Shown here piece by piece: positions 6,209 through 16,606 of a stretch of DNA of 25,136 nucleotides. A program made the position numbers and the translations under genes. Every line of letters begins with the position of its first letter. The first letter of the stretch is position 1. This DNA comes from Methanomicrobia archaeon (GTDB lineage: Archaea; Methanobacteriota_B; Thermococci; Methanofastidiosales; B48-G16), in assembly GCA_021159325.1 (NCBI GenBank), contig JAGGSA010000115.1, positions 1 through 25,136 on the forward strand, written 5' to 3'. The notes beneath the pieces are model-generated. The model was given only the letters and a program-made list of their open reading frames with translations, had not been told where the DNA came from and searched no databases.

Positions 6209-7177
6209 TCAAACCTTCTCCCCACAGTTTGGACAGTACTTACTACCAGCTGGTATCTCTGCTCCGCATTTCTTGCATTTTATCTTGGCTTTTGGCATGG
6301 AAAGTTTGTATCCACAGTTAGGACAGAATTTTGAGTTCCTGGGTACCTGATACCCGCAGTTCGGGCATACTACTGTTGCAACACCTGCTGCCTGTGGCGT
6401 CAGGAGATTTGATACTCCCTGCATTGCATAGGGTATGGCCATGAATCCAGCACCCATCGCAGCTCCGCCACCCTTTGTCTCTTTTATAGCCTCAGCAAAC
6501 TTCTCTGCTATCTCCTTTCCCACCAACTGTTCAGGTGTAACGCCTCTCTGCAGATAGAATAACTTGTTTTTATACTCATCGGGAATTGTTACTCCTTCTA
6601 TCTTCAGATCCACCATATCTATTCCGAATCTTTCAAAGTCTCCTCTCAGTCTTGTCTTTATAAACAGAGATGTCTCAGATGTCTGCTGATATACGTTGTA
6701 GGATGTCTGTTCAGCAAGATTGTCGATGAATTTTTCAATGATGAATGCTTCCACAAACTCCTTAACGTCCTCTTTGGTAAACTTGCCAAGATTTCCAACG
6801 ATCTCTATCACAAAAAGCTTGGGGTCAGAGATCTGTATATAGCATCTACCAAATGCTCCACACGGCACCATATCTCTCAGCATGACCTTCTGTTTTGTTC
6901 CAAACTTGAACTCTATCTTTGATGTGTTTACGAAGACAACTTCTGCTGTGAAAGGTGTCCTCCCCTGAAAAAATACCTTATATGCATTGAAAAGTAAAGG
7001 TATATTCAGAGTTGTCAGGGTATGTCTTCCGGGACCCAGAACGTCATAAGCCTTTCCATCTCTGAAGAATACAGCCTGCTGGTTTTCCCTCACTATCAGC
7101 TGATCTCCCAAGGTGATCTCTCCTCTGTATGCATGAATAAGATCATTATTCATGCCTCTCCAGTCTATAACTCTCAT
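6209..7177 (-). CDS. SPFH/band-7 (stomatin-prohibitin family, COG4260-like) protein with two C-terminal Zn-ribbons
   Basis: 322 aa. The N-terminal IDWRG...LGDQLIVRENQQAVFFRDGKAYDVLGPGRHTLTTLNIP matches the SPFH fold of COG4260-type proteins. The C-terminus has two CPxCG-x(9-10)-CPNCG ribbons. Its ATG at 7175-7177 is directly abutted by the upstream stop codon (TAAATG). Confidence 0.7.
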   Translation of the reverse strand: MRVIDWRGMNNDLIHAYRGEITLGDQLIVRENQQAVFFRDGKAYDVLGPGRHTLTTLNIPLLFNAYKVFFQGRTPFTAEVVFVNTSKIEFKFGTKQKVMLRDMVPCGAFGRCYIQISDPKLFVIEIVGNLGKFTKEDVKEFVEAFIIEKFIDNLAEQTSYNVYQQTSETSLFIKTRLRGDFERFGIDMVDLKIEGVTIPDEYKNKLFYLQRGVTPEQLVGKEIAEKFAEAIKETKGGGAAMGAGFMAIPYAMQGVSNLLTPQAAGVATVVCPNCGYQVPRNSKFCPNCGYKLSMPKAKIKCKKCGAEIPAGSKYCPNCGEKV

Positions 7178-7618
7178 TTATTCACCCATCATATATTTTT
7201 TTCTCTTTTCAAACTCCTCTTCCAGAATTCTCAGATTCTTCAGGACATCCTTCGAATCTTCTCTCTCCTTTATCTCCTCTATTTTTTTCAGGATTTTTTC
7301 ATCGTATTCATACAGTCTGTCCAGTTCTTTCTCGTCTATATGCTCAAGATCAAAAAAACCTGCATATCCATAATCTGCATGCTCTATCTTGTCTATCAGT
7401 TTCTGGAGCTGTTTTATTATCTCCTCACATTTTCTCAGTTCATCAATGTTTTCAATCCCGTCTTCCATATACTCAAAATCCTTTTTTATATACTTCAATT
7501 CATCACATATTTTTGTTCTCAACAACTTGTCGCTTTCTCTTCTCAACTCTTTCTGTTTGTATCCCCTGAATCCAGGTATTAACAACTCTATATCCTCCAA
7601 AATTCTATGTTTTTCCAT
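7178..7618 (-). CDS. Highly charged coiled-coil protein (hypothetical)
   Basis: Start chosen at ATG 7616-7618 (MEKHRILEDIELL...) because AGGTGAT lies 5 nt upstream. The longer track start at 7666 would overlap the rSAM gene. 146 aa, K/E-rich heptad-like sequence. Confidence 0.5.
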   Translation of the reverse strand: MEKHRILEDIELLIPGFRGYKQKELRRESDKLLRTKICDELKYIKKDFEYMEDGIENIDELRKCEEIIKQLQKLIDKIEHADYGYAGFFDLEHIDEKELDRLYEYDEKILKKIEEIKEREDSKDVLKNLRILEEEFEKRKKYMMGE

Positions 7619-7626
7619 AAGATCAC

Positions 7627-8880
7627 CTAATAACACTGCATCTCCAAGGGACATCCTGCTGTACATTCCCTGTTTTTATATTTTTCACATTCCTTACATT
7701 CCTCCGGCATGTACTCTCTATTTCTTATATATCTTGCCAGCTCTGAGTTCCATATATTCTGCCATGGATCCTTTAAAATATTTCCCATGGGCTCAAACCA
7801 GCTCTGACATGGGATAACATCCCCATTTGGTTCAACAGTGACATTGATCCTCGCTGCTGAACATACCTTCAATCCAAGTCCATACTCCACAGGATCTATC
7901 TCACATCTCTTTGTTGGAGTATACCAGACAAGCTCAAGATTAAGTTCATCGCATACCTCGATTATTTTTTCAAGGGTAGCTCTTAACTCATTGAGAGAAA
8001 GAGCATACTCCCTTTTTGCCTTGCCGGAGTAGATGATAGAGTTAAAAGCAAGTCTTTTTAGACCGAGATCACTCAAAAAATAAATGAATTTTTCAATATC
8101 TTTATAGTTATACTTCATCAGCGTTGTATTTGTCAGAGTAAATACAGAAGAGTCCACAGCTTTTTTTATTCCCTCTACCGTTTCCTTCCATGAATTTGCT
8201 CCCGTGATTTTATTATGCACATCTTCAAATCCTTCTATCGTGATCTGAAGATGATCAAGTTCCGCCTTTTCCAGATCATCCATATATTTTGATAGAAGTC
8301 TTCCGTTCGTGATAAGTCCTGTAACGAGGTTTTTGCTGTGAGCCACAAGATCCACAATATCCTCTCTTAAAAGAGGCTCTCCACCTGTGAAGATCACTGA
8401 GTTACTGAGATCAGATATGATATCGATGATCTTTTTCCATTCCTCTGTACTCAGTTCCTCTGTTTCCCTGGGGGATGCTGCATAACAGTGGATGCACTTA
8501 TTGTTGCATCTGTAAGTTACAGCAAGATCAAATCGATGGGGAGCTTTAAGCTCATAGTCCTTGGAGAACGGTGAGATACTCTCTATTCCGAGAGAGGAGA
8601 ATGGACATATATCCTTTGAAGATGCAAGAGCTATGATGCTGAAATAGATCTTTTCATAATCTTTCTCTATTTTTTCCTTGGATACTTTATACTTCTTTCT
8701 CATTATCTTTATTATCTCATTCTTCGTTTTTTCCTCCATTATATATTTCACATACTCTGTTGCAGTTTCATTGAGATAGAGGATATGTGCTCCATTTATA
8801 TTCAGAACAGAGAATCCTTTTTCCTCTCTCAGACTGAGTCTTATCTTTCCTTCCTCAAAAAACAGTGTTTTTCTGAACAT
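7627..8880 (-). CDS. Radical SAM / SPASM-domain peptide-maturase-like enzyme with N-terminal PqqD-like RRE domain
   Basis: Start at ATG 8878-8880 (MFRKTLFFEEGKIRL...), preceded by GGAGGAGGAGGA and overlapping the upstream stop (TGATG). The N-terminal ~85 aa (VLNINGAHILYLNETATEYVKYI...EIIKIMRKKYKVSKEKIEKDYEKIYFSII) has a PqqD/RRE-like pattern. CNNKCIHCY is the CxxxCxxC radical SAM cluster motif. The C-terminus carries a 7-Cys SPASM pattern (Cx13C ... CxxCx7CxxxC ... C). The track's longer N-terminus (MRMCIMCVC...) is a different-frame read-through of the repeat and is rejected. Confidence 0.8.
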   Translation of the reverse strand: MFRKTLFFEEGKIRLSLREEKGFSVLNINGAHILYLNETATEYVKYIMEEKTKNEIIKIMRKKYKVSKEKIEKDYEKIYFSIIALASSKDICPFSSLGIESISPFSKDYELKAPHRFDLAVTYRCNNKCIHCYAASPRETEELSTEEWKKIIDIISDLSNSVIFTGGEPLLREDIVDLVAHSKNLVTGLITNGRLLSKYMDDLEKAELDHLQITIEGFEDVHNKITGANSWKETVEGIKKAVDSSVFTLTNTTLMKYNYKDIEKFIYFLSDLGLKRLAFNSIIYSGKAKREYALSLNELRATLEKIIEVCDELNLELVWYTPTKRCEIDPVEYGLGLKVCSAARINVTVEPNGDVIPCQSWFEPMGNILKDPWQNIWNSELARYIRNREYMPEECKECEKYKNRECTAGCPLEMQCY

Positions 8881-10469
8881 CAGAATCCTCCTCCTCCAGC
8901 ACACGCACATGCACAGGAGACACATGCGCATGCACACGCACATGATACACATGCGCATACACAGGATTTTCCTGAGTGTGCTATCACTATTGGTGTTATT
9001 GCACCTGCAAGTTTTTTGGCACTTATTCCCGGGTTCTTTTCAATGCTCTTCTTGCCTTTGCCAAAGTTTTTTGCAAACTCCTTCCCCTTATAGCTTCCCT
9101 TTGGCAGATTGTACCATATCCACCATGATGTGGGTCTGAAAGTTGCGTCCACATCTTTGAATGTAGATCCAAACTTATCATCAAATTTATCATCTATCAT
9201 AAGCCATCCAGCCTTTTCACCGAAGAGCCTGTATCTCTCTTCTGGAGACACATTCTTCAGCTCTCCCCAGAACTTTTCTATCTTTTCTTTATAGTACTTC
9301 TCTGTATCTCTTCTGCAGTATCCTTTCATCTTTCTGTCCACATTCCTGCTCAGACTCTTTAAAACAATTTTAACTCCATCCACGTCCAAGGTACCATCCT
9401 CTTTAATCCCCTTCAGCAGGAACTGATTCTCATAATAAAATGTTTTTCCCTCAAGAACTACTTCACATCCACAGTATTCACAGTACTCTATCTCCGATTC
9501 TCCCTTCATGGGAGCGCCACAGTTGGGGCAGTGATATGTCTTCTGTTCTTCCCTTGTAGGTAAGATCTCGACCTTTACAGGATTCCACTGGAGGATTCTT
9601 ATCCTCCCCTTCTTCACAAGTCCGAATAAGATTATATTGATTATCTTGAACGGATGGGCTCCAAGAAGAACAGCTGCTTCAGCGTTGTCAAGATCCTTCC
9701 GCACTCCAAGAGACTCCATATGCATTGTGGGATCCTTATACATTTTTTTGGCAGCCTTCAATACCCTGTAAAGGGTATAGGCTACAACTATGAAGGTTAC
9801 AAGAATAAAAAGAATTCCGATTATAATTGATAGGTTATCACTCTCTGGCTTTTTTTCCAGAACATTCGTTACGTATCCCTCAGGAAAGGATATTCCACAG
9901 TCAAATCTTTCTCCTTTTGATAGAGTTCTTTCCCAGTATGCAAATGCTCTTCCGTTTTCTTCTCCAAAGTTATCCGCAGGGACAGGTTTACATCCAAGTT
10001 CCTCTTTTGATACTCCTTCAGGAGCTATAAACTTTACTCTTAAGATATTCACATCCTGATAATCCCAGTAAGCGGGTATAAACTCAACACCTACTCTCCC
10101 CTCCACATCTTTATAAACCATATCAGGAACTATAAGATGGATCTTTAATTTTGTGATATCTCCAGTATTGGCTATTTCTGGGAAGTATATCTTCAGTCTT
10201 TTTCCCTGTTTTTCAACATCAAGCATTGTATTTCCCGATGTTACAGAGTAATCGGTGATCTCATCCTTTGGGATTCCAAAATATATACCTCTCTGAGGCC
10301 CTGAAGTTGTTTCAATAGTTAAAAAATACCATATATCAAGCGAAGAATCATTCTGAACAGTTATTTCCACATTTTCCTCTTTTATAACGAACTCAGGTCC
10401 ATTGGCAAAAGAAATCCCAAGAAACAAAAAAATTATTCCTGCAAGAATAAGCCCATACCTCTTTTTCAT
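8880..10469 (-). CDS. Type-I membrane protein (DUF2207-like architecture: signal peptide, ~190-aa extracytoplasmic domain, TM, cytoplasmic Zn-ribbon) with C-terminal Cys-rich (CxC)n-GGGGF tail
   Basis: 529 aa. ATG 10467-10469 with GAGGAG 5 nt upstream. The N-terminal MKKRYGLILAGIIFLFLGISFANG is a signal peptide. A TM helix lies at ~res 213-236. The Zn ribbon is HCPNCG...CEYCGC. The last 27 aa are SCVCACVSCACACACVSCACACAGGGGF. The stop overlaps the rSAM ATG. Confidence 0.75.
   Translation of the reverse strand: MKKRYGLILAGIIFLFLGISFANGPEFVIKEENVEITVQNDSSLDIWYFLTIETTSGPQRGIYFGIPKDEITDYSVTSGNTMLDVEKQGKRLKIYFPEIANTGDITKLKIHLIVPDMVYKDVEGRVGVEFIPAYWDYQDVNILRVKFIAPEGVSKEELGCKPVPADNFGEENGRAFAYWERTLSKGERFDCGISFPEGYVTNVLEKKPESDNLSIIIGILFILVTFIVVAYTLYRVLKAAKKMYKDPTMHMESLGVRKDLDNAEAAVLLGAHPFKIINIILFGLVKKGRIRILQWNPVKVEILPTREEQKTYHCPNCGAPMKGESEIEYCEYCGCEVVLEGKTFYYENQFLLKGIKEDGTLDVDGVKIVLKSLSRNVDRKMKGYCRRDTEKYYKEKIEKFWGELKNVSPEERYRLFGEKAGWLMIDDKFDDKFGSTFKDVDATFRPTSWWIWYNLPKGSYKGKEFAKNFGKGKKSIEKNPGISAKKLAGAITPIVIAHSGKSCVCACVSCACACACVSCACACAGGGGF
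8899..8964. repeat. Imperfect alternating purine-pyrimidine (CA/CG/TG)n microsatellite, ~66 bp
   Basis: The sequence gcacacgcacatgcacaggagacacatgcgcatgcacacgcacatgatacacatgcgcataca is a GC-rich island in an AT-rich genome. It encodes the Cys-Ala/Val repeat tail on the minus strand and His-Ala repeats in a spurious plus-strand frame. Confidence 0.8.
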
Positions 10470-10531
10470 ATGATCTCCTCTTTTCTATTTTTAGAATCAA
10501 AGTTTTTAAAGTTTTCTATCGCAGTATAATT

Positions 10532-13945: not shown

Positions 13946-15073
13946 ATGGATAGAACTGGAACCTCAGGAAGTGAAGAAAAGGGGGATTGTTATGTTGAAG
14001 TTACCCTTGATTCCGAAAATCTTGAGATCGATATTCAGAGTAAAGTCGAGAAACTCTATGGGAAGTCCATAAGAAAGACTGTGAAGGAAACATTGAAAAG
14101 ATTTGGTATAAAAAAAGGAGTGATAAGAGTAAGGGATAAAGGTGCCTATGATTTTGTCATATCTGCAAGATTAGAGGCAGCATTGTTAAAGGCTGGAGTA
14201 AAAATAGAGAATGATCGTATAGAGAGGGGAAAGGAGAGAGAGATAAAGTTGAGAAGAACAAGATTGTATCTTCCAGGAAACAATCCAAAGCTTCTCTTTG
14301 ATGGAAGTATATTTGACTGCGATTGTGTGATTCTGGATTTGGAGGATTCAGTTAAGATAGATGATAAAATAGATGCGAGAATCCTTGTGAGAAATGCTCT
14401 TTTTGAAATAAAGTACAGGCAGGAGAGGATGGTGAGGGTGAATCCACTTCCTCTTGGAGAAGAAGATTTAAAAGAGATACTGAAAACAGATGTTGATACT
14501 ATTTTAATCCCAAAGGTGGAAACAAAATTACAACTGGAGAAATTTACAGAAATAATTGAAAAATATGAATCTGAATATAAAAAAGATAAAAAAGTAAGAG
14601 TTATACCAATAATAGAGACAGCCTTGGGTCTTGAAAATGCTTTTGAGATAGCGTCTCATGAGAGAGTTGTGGCTATGACATTTGGGGCAGAGGATTACCT
14701 TGCTGATGTTGGTGGTGAGAGGAGCAATGAGGCTCTGTTTTATCTCAGATCAAGGATACTCAACGCAGCAAAGGCATGGAAAAAACAGGCTCTTGATACA
14801 GTATTCCCTAATGTTAACGATGAAAAAGGTTTAGAGGAGGAAACAAGACTTATCAAAGGCATGGGATATGACGGGAAGGGGATCATACATCCAAGACAGG
14901 CAGAGATAATTCATAGAGTCTTTACTCCGTCAGATGAGGAGTATAAAAAAGCAAAAAGAATTATAGAAGCATTTGAAAGATCGAAAGGAGTTGTTGCAAT
15001 AGATGGAAGGATGATAGACCTTCCTGTCGTTAAAAGAGCTCAAAAAATAGTTGATCTTTATGAGGGGAGATAA
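13946..15073 (+). CDS. citDE: Citrate lyase acyl-carrier (gamma, CitD) fused to citrate lyase beta subunit / citryl-CoA lyase (CitE, HpcH/HpaI aldolase fold)
   Basis: Residues 1-95 align with CitD (GTSGS...GD...IDIQS.VEK.YG..IR.TV...L..F......I.V.DKGA.DFVI.ARLEAAL), including a Ser in the GTSGS position equivalent to the prosthetic-group Ser. The remainder is CitE-like (LRRTRLYLPGNNPKLL...DCVILDLEDSV...). 375 aa. Confidence 0.8.
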   Translation: MDRTGTSGSEEKGDCYVEVTLDSENLEIDIQSKVEKLYGKSIRKTVKETLKRFGIKKGVIRVRDKGAYDFVISARLEAALLKAGVKIENDRIERGKEREIKLRRTRLYLPGNNPKLLFDGSIFDCDCVILDLEDSVKIDDKIDARILVRNALFEIKYRQERMVRVNPLPLGEEDLKEILKTDVDTILIPKVETKLQLEKFTEIIEKYESEYKKDKKVRVIPIIETALGLENAFEIASHERVVAMTFGAEDYLADVGGERSNEALFYLRSRILNAAKAWKKQALDTVFPNVNDEKGLEEETRLIKGMGYDGKGIIHPRQAEIIHRVFTPSDEEYKKAKRIIEAFERSKGVVAIDGRMIDLPVVKRAQKIVDLYEGR

Positions 15074-16606
15074 ATGATAAACGGCGTTGGAAGAGATATA
15101 CCGGATGAAATAAAGGGTTATGGAAAGGTCAGGCATTATAAAGGTGCTTTCGAGTATGTTCCAACAGGGAACAGATATGGACCTGTAAAAAAATTCATCA
15201 AACCAGGGGAAGACAAAATAATGACCCTAAGAAATGTTATTAAAAAATATGTAAAGGATGGAATGACAATATCCTTTCATCATGCCTTCAGGAATGGGGA
15301 TGTTCTTGTAAACAGAGTACTCGATATATGCAGTGATCTGGGAATAAAAAATCTCAGGCTCTTTCCCTCAGCGTTATTTCCCTGTCATGAACCTGTAATA
15401 GAGCATATTAAAAACGGAGTTGTAACAAGAATAGAGGGAAGCATGAATGGACCTGTGGGAGAGGCTGTTTCGCATGGTATTCTTCCTTACCCGGCAGTAC
15501 TGAGATCCCATGGAAATCGGTACAGAACGGTGGAGGCTGGAGAAGTACATATAGATGTTGCATTTATAGCAGCACCCACCTCTGATGAATACGGGAATGC
15601 AAATGGAATATATGGACCAACGCCCTGTGGCCCCTTAATATACTCAAAAGTTGATTCATTGTATGCGGATAAGGTCATAGTTGTTACAAATAATCTTGTT
15701 GATTATCCAGCATTCCCCATGACGATAAAACAGACAGATGTGGATCATGTTGTGGTGGAGGATAATATAGGTGACCCTAAGGGCATAGTTTCAGGGACAC
15801 TGAGAATAACAAGATCCCCCAGAAGATTGAAGATAGCAAGAACAGTAGTTGATGTCATAAGGGCATCAGGTGTCCTGAAAGATGGATTCAGCTTTCAGGC
15901 TGGGGCAGGAGGGATATCCTTAGCAGTTACAAAGTATCTTGGAGAGGCCATGGAGGAAGAGGATATAGTGGGAAGTTTTGGAATGGGAGGAAGCACAAGG
16001 TATCTTGTGGATATTCTGAAAAAAGGAAGACTCAGGTGTATTCTTGAGGGGCAGTGCTTTGATGAGGAGGCTATAAAATCTCTCAGAGAGAACCCAAATC
16101 ATGTAATAGTTGATCCGAGTTTCTATGCGAACTACAACTCAAGAGGAAATGCGGTGTACAAAGAGGATGTGGCATTTCTCGGTGCTACAGAGATAGATAC
16201 AAAATTCAATGTGAATGTCAATACACACTCAGATGGTCTTCTTCTCCATGGAATAGGGGGTCATCAGGATGTTGCCTCAGGGGCAAGGATCTGCATAATC
16301 ACAGCACCGTTACTCAGAGATAGAATACCTGTTATAGTAAAGGATGTTACAACAGTCACAACTCCGGGGGAGACAGTGGATGTAGTTGTCACGGATGTTG
16401 GTGTTGCTGTTAACCCGAGGAGAAAAGATCTTTTAGAAAAACTTAAAGCTGCAGATATAGAGGTAAGAGATATAAAGGAACTTCAGGAAGAAGCTTATGA
16501 TATAGCAGGAGAACCTGAAAAACCAGAAACAAAAGATAGAATAATAGCGGTGATACAGTACAGGGATGGAAGTGTAATAGATGTGGTAAAGGAGGTAAAG
16601 GAATGA
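15074..16606 (+). CDS. citF: Citrate lyase alpha subunit (citrate CoA-transferase, CitF)
   Basis: 510 aa. The N-terminal NGVGRDIPDEIKGYGKV...RNVIKKYVKDGMTISFHHAFRNGD is typical of CitF. The ATG directly follows the citDE stop (TAAATG). Confidence 0.85.
   Translation: MINGVGRDIPDEIKGYGKVRHYKGAFEYVPTGNRYGPVKKFIKPGEDKIMTLRNVIKKYVKDGMTISFHHAFRNGDVLVNRVLDICSDLGIKNLRLFPSALFPCHEPVIEHIKNGVVTRIEGSMNGPVGEAVSHGILPYPAVLRSHGNRYRTVEAGEVHIDVAFIAAPTSDEYGNANGIYGPTPCGPLIYSKVDSLYADKVIVVTNNLVDYPAFPMTIKQTDVDHVVVEDNIGDPKGIVSGTLRITRSPRRLKIARTVVDVIRASGVLKDGFSFQAGAGGISLAVTKYLGEAMEEEDIVGSFGMGGSTRYLVDILKKGRLRCILEGQCFDEEAIKSLRENPNHVIVDPSFYANYNSRGNAVYKEDVAFLGATEIDTKFNVNVNTHSDGLLLHGIGGHQDVASGARICIITAPLLRDRIPVIVKDVTTVTTPGETVDVVVTDVGVAVNPRRKDLLEKLKAADIEVRDIKELQEEAYDIAGEPEKPETKDRIIAVIQYRDGSVIDVVKEVKE

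Follow-up and report, generated by a model that had tools for sequence, protein, structure and literature searches.

Cys-rich core sequences that are served by SPASM radical-SAM enzymes with an RRE have so far mostly belonged to thioether systems, including those of AlbA, SkfB, CteB, PapB, Tte1186 and QhpD. Sactipeptides are hairpins stapled through bonds between Cys sulfur and an alpha-carbon, and Ala is a known acceptor. QhpD, a SPASM radical-SAM enzyme, installs Cys thioethers on QhpC, the gamma subunit of quinohemoprotein amine dehydrogenase, and the modified protein stays a functional subunit and is not released as a natural product. We analyzed a stretch of archaeal DNA of 25,136 nucleotides (the window), in which a membrane protein with a Cys-Ala tail is encoded next to an RRE/radical-SAM/SPASM enzyme. 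This pair is one copy of a conserved, unnamed cassette of two genes, three in many lineages, that occurs in anaerobic Archaea and Bacteria. A preliminary description of the locus could not assign the arrangement to any known family, and this was borne out: no Pfam or NCBIfam family covers the membrane protein or the enzyme, and no paper describing either partner was found in the searchable literature. The same unnamed and unstudied gene pair is present in hundreds of anaerobic archaea and bacteria; given this wide occurrence, it is probably the sign of a so far undescribed modification that an enzyme makes on a full-length protein. All features described below lie on the minus strand.

The membrane protein (529 aa; 8880..10469, stop included) has an exact match in the protein collection, GenBank MCD6127983.1 (“hypothetical protein”), and 40 homologs were found. 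Its AlphaFold model (mean pLDDT 76.8) comprises an N-terminal hydrophobic helix (aa 2-20, 10410..10466, sequence MKKRYGLILAGIIFLFLGISFA), which may be a signal peptide or a membrane anchor, an extracytoplasmic beta-sandwich domain (aa 27-195, 9885..10391), a TM helix (aa 212-242, 9744..9836), a Zn ribbon and a disordered tail. Basic residues (KAAKKMYK) follow the TM helix, and by the positive-inside rule we infer that the C-terminal half is cytoplasmic; in this predicted single-pass topology, both the Zn ribbon and the tail are located C-terminal of the TM helix. The cytoplasmic domain (aa 251-437, 9159..9719; MESLGxRKDLDxxEAA...) combines a winged-helix-like part with a helical bundle, is the most conserved stretch of the family and holds the inserted Zn ribbon (CPNCGAP-x10-CEYCG, aa 314-336, 9462..9530), in which C314, C317, C330 and C333 are invariant. 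It is followed by a conserved amphipathic segment (aa 462-493, 8991..9086, GKEFAKNF...KKLAGAITP; modelled as a helix at 462-478), whose consensus in other phyla was PGxxFAxxh...F(A/T)xxh..P in an alignment of C-termini from 18 lineages. This segment is a candidate leader-like docking site for the RRE, a role that is only inferred. Membership of the protein in DUF2207, which the preliminary description had raised, found no support, as Pfam gave no match for the window protein even at E<=10; one Bathyarchaeia relative matched DUF2207 below threshold (E=0.0018; 19 bits, gathering score 24.4).

The open reading frame closes in ...HSGKSCVCACVSCACACACVSCACACAGGGGF, and the terminal sequence of the protein is CVCACVSCACACACVSCACACAGGGGF. 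Within it, the Cys-Ala block CVCAC-VS-CACACAC-VS-CACACA (aa 503-524, 8898..8963) is followed by the C-terminus GGGGF (8883..8897). The (CxC)n tail noted earlier is thus real, but its Cys count had been overstated: the 22 residues contain 10 Cys, not 11. The family core is CACACAC-[A/V][G/S]-CACACA-GGG, extended to 10 Cys in the window copy, and GGG after the block is kept in all lineages. The tail was invariant in 36 of 36 full-length homologs with overall identities of 38-99%, and at every position between the Cys, 83-91 of the 91 representatives (50% identity) had Ala. In contrast to a DNA repeat, the codons of the tail vary synonymously (TGT/TGC, GCN), which indicates selection on the protein. 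Judged from these alignments, conservation of the tail is far beyond chance. We propose that the Cys-Ala block is the core, i.e. the site modified by the enzyme. The tail was modelled as disordered (pLDDT<50), so the model gives no indication of a hairpin or docking.

The enzyme (417 aa; 7627..8880, stop included) is GenBank MCD6127982.1, annotated as “PqqD family peptide modification chaperone”. A longer frame in a mechanical ORF list, reaching 8958, was rejected since its extension merely reads the tail in the +1 frame and database homologs have 417 aa and start with MFRKTLFF. The AlphaFold model (pLDDT 84, pTM 0.85) begins with a PqqD-like winged helix, the RRE (aa 2-87, 8620..8877), made of strands (2-36) and helices (38-87). 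Pfam PqqD (PF05402) matched residues 25-77 with 28.0 bits, above the gathering score of 23.4, as expected from the PqqD-type N-terminus proposed before; several orthologs scored under the Pfam threshold for this domain, and for one short-form partner (L030) no PqqD match was listed at E<=0.01. The radical-SAM core (aa 121-266, 8083..8520; PF04055, 95.5 bits) contains CNNKCIHC (nt 8485-8508), whose C125, C129 and C132 (CxxxCxxC) were invariant in an alignment of 36 sequences. The SPASM region (7651..7905; PF13186, residues 340-399, 48.5 bits) has the seven Cys noted earlier, all invariant in the same alignment (C326, C340-x12-G-x4-C358, C395-x2-C398-x7-C406-x3-C410); on sequence grounds, they would be enough for two auxiliary clusters. 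An invariant Cys92-Pro93 falls outside the cluster motifs.

By both profile and fold, the closest solved relatives of the enzyme are the RiPP maturases SkfB, SuiB, CteB and PqqE. The best match was the sactisynthase SkfB (profile E=1.6e-30; Foldseek E=2.6e-18, TM 0.67-0.72), followed by PqqE, SuiB and CteB; Foldseek alignments to SkfB, SuiB and CteB covered 393-458 columns of the 417-aa query, although identity to solved enzymes was only ~18%. Among the NCBIfam models listed, AlbA alone matched from the N-terminal RRE region on to SPASM (residues 28-402). Orthology to a cofactor-biosynthesis enzyme such as AhbD or NirJ without an RRE, which would have refuted the preliminary description, was rejected, because an RRE is present and the best NCBIfam scores of the enzyme, for NirJ2 (121 bits, cut-off 500), PqqE (115, cut-off 381) and AhbD (100, cut-off 500), were all below the cut-offs.

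At the junction of the two genes (GGAGGAGGAGGA, then TTC TGATG; 8878..8897), the stop codon TGA of the membrane protein (8882-8880) and the ATG of the enzyme (8880-8878) share one A, in agreement with the translational coupling suggested earlier. The four Gly codons directly upstream (GGA GGA GGA GGA) also form a Shine-Dalgarno-like GGAGG run. Ahead of the membrane-protein ATG, the sequence alone offers GAGGAG at 6 nt and, ~35-40 nt upstream, a possible archaeal TATA box (TTTAAAAA, 10503..10510), whose role is inferred. Downstream of the enzyme, there is an ORF for a coiled-coil protein of 162 aa (7178..7666; probable start ATG at 7618, 8 nt past the enzyme stop), and its stop abuts (TAAATG) the start of an SPFH/Band-7 protein with a C-terminal double Zn ribbon (6209..7177; Pfam Band_7_1 at 1e-37 and DZR). 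The coiled-coil gene also follows the cassette in loci L050 and L034, and the SPFH/Band-7 gene is co-located with it in L032, L034, L050 and L006/L007; in the Bathyarchaeia locus L006, the pair of coiled-coil and SPFH genes lies divergent. They are possible accessory genes of only some lineages.

A profile search with the whole membrane protein yielded 804 clusters (50% identity). Among the best 150 hits, all entries of at least 500 aa carried the (Cys-Ala)n-GGG block, at the C-terminus in all but two, and tail-less entries had 193-486 aa, the longest of which end before the tail region is reached, as expected of cut ORFs. Thus, within these hits, there was no full-length member without the tail and no case of homologs that had lost it and kept the enzyme, an outcome that would have spoken against the proposed relationship. 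It also means that the tail is inseparable from the protein family, so co-occurrence alone cannot tell whether the enzyme needs the tail or the protein. We then considered family-blind DNA scans for the tail, which gave 119 genome loci and 120 metagenome loci from Bathyarchaeia, Methanofastidiosia, Methanocella, Asgard archaea, Chloroflexota, Clostridia, Acidobacteriota, Zixibacteria and others. The expected co-occurrence was found: 197 of 202 informative loci (genome 102/105, metagenome 95/97) had an enzyme ortholog in the same stretch, directly adjacent in 99 of 105 genome and 89 of 97 metagenome loci. The five exceptions were from Promethearchaeota (L079, L126), Thermoproteales (L124) and metagenomes (L170, L236), and here absence refers to the locus stretch only, not to whole genomes.

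The pair is adjacent in Methanofastidiosia and Bathyarchaeia loci, and all other neighbours differ. Two gene orders were observed: the tail gene precedes the enzyme in archaea and the long forms, and the enzyme precedes the tail gene in short bacterial forms. The latter have ~300-400 aa, and their cytoplasmic side consists only of a Gly-rich linker, the tail and a short extension. A single enzyme gene is accompanied by 2-3 tandem tail-protein paralogs at L057, L204 and L227. In most other lineages, the Zn ribbon is a separate protein of ~115-120 aa with two TM helices, encoded directly upstream (48 genome and 66 metagenome loci), and in Clostridia short forms (L019) it is absent and the enzyme is retained. 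The Zn ribbon, being fused, separate or absent depending on lineage, is therefore not universal. Chloroflexota-like loci add a methyltransferase and a catalytically dead paralog, a hint that the pathway may be more complex. No other small ORF common to all lineages was found among the neighbours of the surveyed loci, and no protease or exporter was conserved across ~240 loci. MacB/LolD-type ABC ATPases are located near the cassette in a few Clostridia loci. Besides, LemA is a neighbour in 10 short-form bacterial loci, and one fusion of the membrane protein to a TPM-like domain (L101) was noticed by eye.

The anatomy, domain content, conservation, predicted topology and gene linkage of the pair are what the analysis shows. 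The reading of the preliminary description, in which the enzyme is a maturase and the tail its substrate, is supported by them, yet the enzyme-substrate relationship and the chemistry are unproven and inferred from comparative genomics. We consider it quite probable that the enzyme acts on the tail as its substrate, much as in the maturation of RiPPs (ribosomally made, post-translationally modified peptides). The short bacterial forms favour this inference, since their cytoplasmic part, where the enzyme must act, is nearly only a Gly-rich linker and the tail. Thioether formation as the chemistry is likewise inferred and untested, and remains tentative, with doubt slightly the heavier. As the best overall explanation, which lacks biochemical evidence and which we hold with a little more confidence than doubt, the enzyme makes thioether cross-links in a tail that stays on the membrane protein. 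The RRE would dock on the C-terminal region of the partner, in long forms likely on the conserved amphipathic segment (FAxx...) that lies 10-40 residues ahead of the Cys block. The enzyme would cleave SAM reductively, and the 5'-deoxyadenosyl radical would abstract a C-H hydrogen from tail residues; while an auxiliary cluster holds the thiolate of a tail Cys, several intramolecular S-C thioethers (sactionine- or ranthionine-type) could form between Cys and Ala positions. For PapB and Tte1186, tests with selenocysteine in place of the substrate Cys showed that this residue contacts an iron of an auxiliary cluster before the C-S bond forms (PMC10177961). The product would be neither cleaved nor exported; the membrane protein would keep it at its C-terminus as a rigid, cross-linked knot.

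SPASM enzymes carry out many reactions (C-C cross-links, epimerisation, Cys oxidation, ether formation), and similarity therefore does not fix the chemistry. The enzyme might modify the tail by L-to-D epimerisation of alternating residues, C-C or other cross-links, or Cys oxidation or conversion, or a protein-bound metal-sulfur cofactor might be built or remodelled on the Cys ladder. The matches of the enzyme include PqqE (C-C), SuiB (Lys-Trp), anSME (Cys oxidation) and YydG (epimerase). Radical-SAM epimerases use a conserved Cys as hydrogen-atom donor, a role that the invariant Cys92-Pro93 could fill, and the methyltransferase and dead paralog of some lineages also suit a different reaction. 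However, the best profile and fold match is a sactisynthase, comparable Cys-rich cores are mostly thioether systems as described above, and no specific evidence points to any alternative reaction; we regard such chemistry as unlikely, though not negligible. The adjacency might even be incidental, the result of operon packing of unrelated genes with the tail as a low-complexity artefact. Only the general caution that gene neighbourhood is not function speaks for this. The overlapping stop and start codons, linkage across Archaea and Bacteria in two gene orders, and protein-level purifying selection on the tail speak against it, and the synonymous codons, the Ala spacers and the 197/202 linkage effectively refute it.

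Another possibility is that the tail is not modified at all and serves as a metallothionein-like site for metal or Fe-S binding or for lipidation. The enzyme would then have a different target, for example a diffusible peptide, a small molecule or the small Zn-ribbon protein. In favour of this, Zn-ribbon elements are found repeatedly in the cassette, thiolate clusters typically have CxC repeats as ligands, and in a few loci no enzyme gene lies next to that of the tail protein. Simple metal ligation, however, needs no Ala spacers, which are nearly invariant across two domains of life and, together with synonymous codon variation, argue against a plain metal-binding tail. The enzyme has a peptide-binding RRE, it persists in the Clostridia short forms that lack the Zn ribbon, no alternative small ORF is shared by all lineages and the pair is kept together at nearly all informative loci, which leaves this explanation improbable. 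Finally, a C-terminal core beside an RRE-SPASM enzyme is the standard RiPP layout, and the membrane protein could be a giant leader or carrier from which a modified Cys-Ala peptide is cleaved and then released or exported; the ABC ATPases near the cassette in a few Clostridia loci would suit this. Such a scheme appears very improbable: the survey revealed no conserved protease or exporter, the carrier has domains of its own and shows strong conservation over 300-600 residues, and in the alignment of C-termini from 18 lineages no cleavage motif is conserved ahead of the Cys block, the linker being variable and Gly/Ser/Pro-rich.

The favoured reading, thioether cross-links that stay on the protein, can be compared with several known systems. 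Metallothionein-type sequences share the high Cys density and CxC spacing, but the spacers of the Cys-Ala tail are nearly invariant Ala, and the block only forms the short end of a large membrane protein and is genetically tied to a radical-SAM enzyme. DUF2207/LemA/TPM modules share the signal peptide, beta-sandwich ectodomain, TM helix and Gly-rich cytoplasmic tail; weak N-domain matches to DUF2207 in the family are below the Pfam gathering score and, to our knowledge, canonical DUF2207 proteins end in Gly/Ser-rich tails with neither a Cys-Ala block nor a radical-SAM partner. anSME (fold match E about 1e-12) is also a SPASM enzyme and has a Cys of a full-length protein as its target, but it is without an RRE and oxidises one residue to formylglycine in C/S-x-P/A-x-R, a motif that the window tail does not have. 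The sactisynthases SkfB, AlbA and CteB likewise have an N-terminal RRE, a radical-SAM core and a C-terminal SPASM-type domain with auxiliary clusters, and their Cys-rich cores are also encoded beside the enzyme. However, the window enzyme is far under the NCBIfam cut-offs (AlbA 75 bits vs 850, StsB 87 vs 625, SkfB 64 vs 300), the cassette has no protease or exporter, the strict Cys-Ala alternation is unknown in sactipeptides, and the proposed substrate is not a leader-core peptide of 30-60 aa but the C-terminal end of a conserved membrane protein of 300-600 aa. The single enzyme gene serving 2-3 tail-protein paralogs resembles RiPP clusters with several precursors. Similarly, the RRE-SPASM maturases of ranthipeptides/SCIFF (PapB/freyrasin, Tte1186/SCIFF) make several thioethers in a repetitive Cys-containing core, although the repeat unit is CxxxD or another motif and not CA, the precursors are small soluble peptides unlike the membrane protein here, and the PapB-family model NF047865 matches at 67 bits, far under its cut-off of 340. 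Among known systems in which the protein keeps its modification, QhpD/QhpC comes closest. No sequence-level membership of the window enzyme with QhpD has been shown, and QhpC is a small soluble/periplasmic subunit with Cys-to-Asp/Glu links and a quinone cofactor, whereas the proposed substrate here is the cytoplasmic tail of a membrane protein with Cys-Ala repeats.

The tail protein (MCD6127983.1), a 529-aa single-pass membrane protein with a C-terminal Cys-Ala block, is encoded at 8880..10469 on the minus strand and is followed by the gene for a 417-aa RRE/radical-SAM/SPASM enzyme (MCD6127982.1; 7627..8880, minus strand); the two genes are referred to here as the cassette. In GenBank the products carry only generic names, 'hypothetical protein' for the first and 'PqqD family peptide modification chaperone' for the second. 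The C-terminus of the tail protein reads ...HSGKSCVCACVSCACACACVSCACACAGGGGF, and a recount gave 10 Cys in 22 residues instead of the 11 reported in the preliminary description. The overlap of stop and start codons (TGATG) reported there is indeed seen in the DNA (...TGT GCT GGA GGA GGA GGA TTC TGA TG): the stop TGA of the tail gene (8882-8880) and the ATG of the enzyme gene (8880-8878) have one base in common. The four Gly codons of the tail protein form a GGAGG-type run before the enzyme start, such that the GGG(G) of the tail (8883-8897, minus strand), coded by GGA four times, also serves the overlapping enzyme gene as its ribosome-binding site. Because GGG is kept even where the gene order is reversed, the constraint at the protein level came first. 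A TATA-like TTTAAAAA was found upstream of the tail gene, the first gene of the cassette.

An AlphaFold model of the tail protein (pLDDT 76.8) contained an N-terminal helix (aa 2-20), a confidently predicted beta-sandwich (aa 27-195), a single TM helix with basic residues after it (aa 212-242), a winged-helix-like unit (aa 262-302), a Zn ribbon, CPNCGAP...CEYCG (aa 314-336; window 9462-9530, minus strand), a helical bundle (aa 345-437), a further helix (aa 462-478) and a disordered tail (aa 495-529). Neither this protein nor its bacterial and archaeal relatives could be assigned to a family in Pfam or NCBIfam scans, where only DUF2207 and TIGR04222 appeared, both below threshold. DUF2207 had been suggested for the membrane protein, but the Pfam profile (PF09972) did not match the window protein even at E<=10; against a gathering score of 24.4 bits it gave 19.0 bits with a Bathyarchaeia relative (locus L008; E=0.0018, profile positions 8-165 of 172) and 13.5 bits with a Clostridia relative (locus L019). 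The architecture of the tail protein is similar to that of DUF2207 membrane proteins.

The tail is strongly conserved. Direct homologs of the tail protein numbered 40, all from genome bins of Methanofastidiosia and Theionarchaea (38-99% identity), and each of the 36 full-length ones terminated in CACACACVSCACACA[GS]GGGF. When 1.84 billion representatives were searched with a profile of the whole protein, 804 clusters matched at E<=1e-3. Of the best 150 of these matches, all entries of at least 500 aa had the Cys-Ala block, located internally and followed by a C-terminal extension in two of them (protein entries P0179 and P0198); the block-less entries among the same 150 were 193-486 aa long, and the longest of them ended upstream of the tail region and looked cut. 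Loss of the tail with retention of the enzyme, which had been named as a refuting outcome, was thus not seen. A comparison of 91 representatives retrieved independently of the tail showed that, at each position between cysteines, 83-91 of the 91 had Ala. The most frequent variant was ...GGG-CACACAC-AG-CACACA-GGGR, and uninterrupted (CA)5 tails also exist. Tail codons varied synonymously between lineages, which indicates that the constraint acts on the peptide and rules out an origin from a DNA repeat or microsatellite. A word-index protein search with the tail only, a low-complexity query for which the index is evidently unsuited, returned no more than 13 C-terminal fragments, all of the same family. 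The long forms also have in common an amphipathic segment, PGxxFAxxh...F(A/T)xxh..P, that lies 10-40 residues upstream of the Cys block; it is plausible, by inference only, that this segment is a leader-like docking site for the RRE.

The enzyme begins MFRKTLFF. A longer ORF of 443 aa (start 8958) was rejected: database homologs are of 417 aa, with the start at 8880, and the extension is merely the +1 frame of the tail. Pfam located PqqD (PF05402), i.e., the RRE, at residues 25-77 (28.0 bits; gathering score 23.4), Radical_SAM (PF04055) at residues 121-266 (95.5 bits) and SPASM (PF13186) at residues 340-399 (48.5 bits). The radical-SAM motif CxxxCxxC (C125/C129/C132) was invariant in 36 orthologs, as were C326, C340, C358, C395, C398, C406 and C410 of the SPASM region, a 7-Cys pattern for two auxiliary clusters; all three domains had been recognized by eye in the preliminary description. 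A PqqD domain is also precomputed for many enzyme orthologs and is below threshold or not listed in some bacterial ones. The AlphaFold model (pLDDT 84, pTM 0.85) comprised a beta-sheet and three-helix RRE at residues 2-87, a radical-SAM barrel and the SPASM region. RiPP maturases were at the top of a Foldseek search (SkfB with E=2.6e-18 and TM 0.67-0.72, then CteB, SuiB and PqqE), and a profile of the 36 orthologs matched SkfB (E=1.6e-30) and PqqE (3.6e-28). Besides the cluster motifs, a Cys-Pro pair in the linker between RRE and radical-SAM domain (aa 92-93; window 8602-8607, minus strand) was invariant and was kept in bacterial orthologs too (...CPV...); it could provide a catalytic or hydrogen-donor residue.

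No NCBIfam model reached its curated cut-off with the window enzyme or with four distant orthologs, from Bathyarchaeia, Methanocella, Acidobacteriota and Clostridia; all scores stayed far below. The maturase models compared were AlbA, SkfB, StsB, PapB, ScmE/F, GeoRSP, ACGX, HxsC, WgkB and mycofactocin MftC, and the scores of the window enzyme were far below the cut-offs for maturases (bits/cut-off: AlbA 75/850, SkfB 64/300, PapB 67/340, MftC 98/265) and for cofactor enzymes (NirJ2 121/500, PqqE 115/381, AhbD 100/500, archaeal MoaA 102/325) alike. The enzyme is therefore no ortholog of NirJ, AhbD, PqqE or MoaA, and it does not belong to any of the named families of maturases. Orthology to a cofactor-biosynthesis enzyme lacking an RRE would have refuted the earlier proposal; the NirJ, AhbC, AhbD, PqqE and MoaA scores were all below cut-off and the RRE is present.

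Conserved linkage of the two genes extends far beyond the window. In two distant tail-protein homologs, the enzyme gene lay directly downstream and all other neighbours differed. Starting from the enzyme (2962 homologs at E<=1e-20), the set with 46-50% identity included Bathyarchaeia- and Bathyarchaeota-labelled proteins, and all three such loci inspected (one labelled Bathyarchaeia, two unlabelled and of identical gene layout) had upstream a 535-542-aa membrane protein ending CVCAC..CACACACV[SG]CACACAGGG(AR|VG). A scan of one genome per GTDB species for DNA coding for CACVxCACACA gave at least 119 stretches, and 117 of the 119 listed were the tail of this family. The exceptions were a chance match (L054), which was discarded, and L012, where the motif lay at the stretch edge with no readable in-frame ORF and the enzyme gene directly followed. 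Metagenome contigs scanned for CACACAGCACACAGGG gave at least 120 loci. With orthology set at phmmer E<1e-15 and only informative loci counted, an enzyme ortholog was directly adjacent in 99 of 105 genome and 89 of 97 metagenome loci (188/202) among the matches listed, and was present within the stretch in 102 and 95 of these (197/202), so that the co-occurrence survey proposed at the outset came out in favor of the earlier proposal. Two gene orders were found: the tail gene precedes the enzyme gene in archaea and in the long forms, and follows it in the short bacterial forms. No enzyme ortholog occurred within the stretch at L079 and L126 (Promethearchaeota), L124 (Thermoproteales), and the metagenome loci L170 and L236, with room on both sides. 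At L079, L126 and L124 several kb of sequence flank the tail gene on either side and contain no radical-SAM gene; these genomes may lack the enzyme or encode it at another site. In L057 (an Acidobacteriota bin), L204 and L227, two to three tandem tail-protein paralogs lie beside a single enzyme gene, a layout that may be likened to RiPP clusters with several precursors.

According to record labels, archaeal carriers include Bathyarchaeia, other Thermoproteota, Methanofastidiosia, Theionarchaea, Methanocella (with the cultured isolate MCL-LM), Promethearchaeota and Hermodarchaeum (Asgard), and bacterial carriers include Clostridia/Oscillospiraceae, Dehalococcoidia, Chloroflexia, Acidobacteriota, Zixibacteria, Aminicenantes, Krumholzibacteriia and Chitinivibrionia. 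The cassette is restricted to anaerobes and widespread: clustering at 50% identity leaves at least 804 clusters, and a single tail variant occurs in well over 100 GTDB species. A tblastn search of plasmids with a short bacterial form gave no match, and hence no sign of a mobile element.

In the short bacterial forms (~300-400 aa), a signal peptide, a homologous ectodomain, a TM helix and a Gly-rich linker are followed by SCACACVSCACACACAGGG[GRA]AGC[SA][RK]K and a short extension, often with HxCPxC. The cytoplasmic part of these forms is practically the tail alone, one of the reasons for regarding the tail itself as the likely target and not merely the protein that bears it. The Zn ribbon is fused in Methanofastidiosia, separate in most other lineages and absent in Clostridia, and is therefore not a universal partner. 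When separate, it is a protein of ~115-120 aa with two TM helices and the C-terminus TEEPKW, encoded directly upstream of the tail gene in at least 48 genome and at least 66 metagenome loci (for example, L008:3023-3376 and L225:3100-3573, both plus strand). The ribbon inserted in the tail protein of the window lineage looks like the result of a gene fusion or fission event.

The window encodes, in a tightly packed row on one strand, the tail protein, the enzyme, a coiled-coil protein and, last, an SPFH/Band-7 protein that bears a double Zn ribbon; the genes of the latter two (6209-7666, minus strand) follow the cassette without a gap, with abutting stop and start (TAAATG). This pair also adjoins the cassette in loci L050, L034 and L032 and is divergent in the Bathyarchaeia loci L006/L007. 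Since it was seen in only ~5 loci among the matches listed, it is treated as a lineage-specific association and not as part of the core. LemA neighbours at least 10 short-form bacterial loci, and the SPFH, coiled-coil and LemA genes together hint at a link to membrane-scaffold or membrane-stress modules. SufC was considered as a conserved neighbour and dismissed: the 'ABC ATPase' cluster was a mixture of unrelated ABC ATPases, with one SufC-like by eye (L107).

In Chloroflexota-like metagenome loci, the enzyme gene is followed by a paralog without CxxxCxxC and without any of the SPASM cysteines, a 'pseudo-radical-SAM' protein which keeps the RRE-like N-terminus and the fold (L225:6733-7908, plus strand; in reverse-complement coordinates, L143 4023-5216 and L165 12675-14042); a class-I methyltransferase gene often comes after it (at least 39 loci). 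In a Betaproteobacteria bin (L101:3-923, plus strand), the Cys-Ala motif is internal and precedes a TM segment and a domain of TPM-type appearance; judged by eye, tail protein and TPM module seem to be fused here. The window itself is ordinary chromosomal sequence of a Methanofastidiosia-type archaeon, under the GenBank label Methanomicrobia archaeon, with related contigs labelled Thermococci or Methanofastidiosia. It also carries citrate lyase, UvrA, MetRS, two tRNAs and ORFs named by eye from their translations (enolase, aldehyde:ferredoxin oxidoreductase-like). At the citrate lyase locus (13946-16606, plus strand), a single 375-aa ORF beside CitF combines the acyl-carrier (gamma) and beta subunits as a fusion, with Pfam matches to both ACP and HpcH_HpaI.

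Linkage, domain content, predicted topology and conservation are established here. That the tail is the substrate of the enzyme is inferred without modification data, and we consider it probable. The RRE would dock on the C-terminal region of the tail protein, and cleavage of SAM would generate a 5'-deoxyadenosyl radical that takes a hydrogen from one of the tail residues. An S-C bond could then be formed by a Cys thiolate bound to an auxiliary cluster, the step being repeated along the Cys-Ala repeat. A precedent for this is given by PapB and Tte1186, in which the (seleno)cysteine of the substrate contacts an iron of an auxiliary cluster (PMC10177961). Going by sequence alone, the near-invariance of Ala speaks for recognition of the spacer residues or for a role as acceptors; simple metal ligation would call for neither. 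More speculatively, a hairpin with the [A/V][G/S] pair at its turn could set Cys opposite Ala, as in sactipeptide hairpins; tails with an uninterrupted (CA)5 exist as well. Thioether formation itself, also an inference, is held only tentatively, at slightly short of an even chance. Other radical chemistry on the tail (epimerisation, formation of C-C links, conversion of the Cys residues, or the building of a cofactor or cluster) would involve the same two partners; we regard it as unlikely, yet worth keeping in mind.

A metal-binding tail that stays unmodified while the enzyme acts elsewhere is improbable: a metallothionein-like tail would have variable spacers and no dedicated enzyme, whereas here Ala is almost constant and a radical-SAM gene is the neighbour. 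A classical RiPP that is released from its precursor is more improbable still, as it needs a short precursor with a cleavable leader and the candidate is a membrane protein of 300-600 aa. Among the matches listed, no protease, exporter or transporter was conserved across loci, and a modified tail would therefore most likely stay on the protein; nor was a small ORF of the SCIFF-precursor type (~45 aa, six Cys) conserved across these loci. Mere coincidence, set beside the co-occurrence at genome and metagenome loci, can hardly be entertained.

If the tail is the substrate, the enzyme might convert it into a new protein-bound structure, either a polythioether 'ladder' or a cofactor-like metal-sulfur center, lending the membrane protein a redox, metal or signalling function; this full proposal is a doubtful one at present. 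Were it true, the system would be ancient and common to anaerobic Archaea, including Asgard, and Bacteria, and its product would count as a protein-derived cofactor or post-translational modification of a new class instead of one more RiPP natural product. The Cys-Ala alternation, kept across two domains of life, is among the most rigidly conserved short motifs that could be expected. The cassette offers a directly testable case of a proposed RiPP-like modification retained on the protein. The minimal substrate is defined, a host is in culture (Methanocella sp. MCL-LM), and study of the cassette may help to find out what DUF2207/LemA-type membrane modules, whose function is unknown, do. Such loci are probably scored as peptide gene clusters by genome-mining tools of the antiSMASH type, which recognition of the cassette would correct.

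To our knowledge, the RRE-containing radical-SAM/SPASM enzymes described so far nearly all serve to make small peptides that are secreted. The cassette is absent from the literature searched, which neither prints the tail motif nor links DUF2207 with radical SAM, and the preliminary view that the arrangement fits no known family is borne out, neither partner being covered by a family model of Pfam or NCBIfam. As proposed, the cassette works like sactipeptide and ranthipeptide maturation systems, and it resembles QhpD acting on QhpC in that the product is kept on the protein. Apparently, a known enzyme logic is used here on the cytoplasmic end of a membrane protein that is large and conserved; what is new is the class of substrate, the motif and how widely the cassette is distributed.
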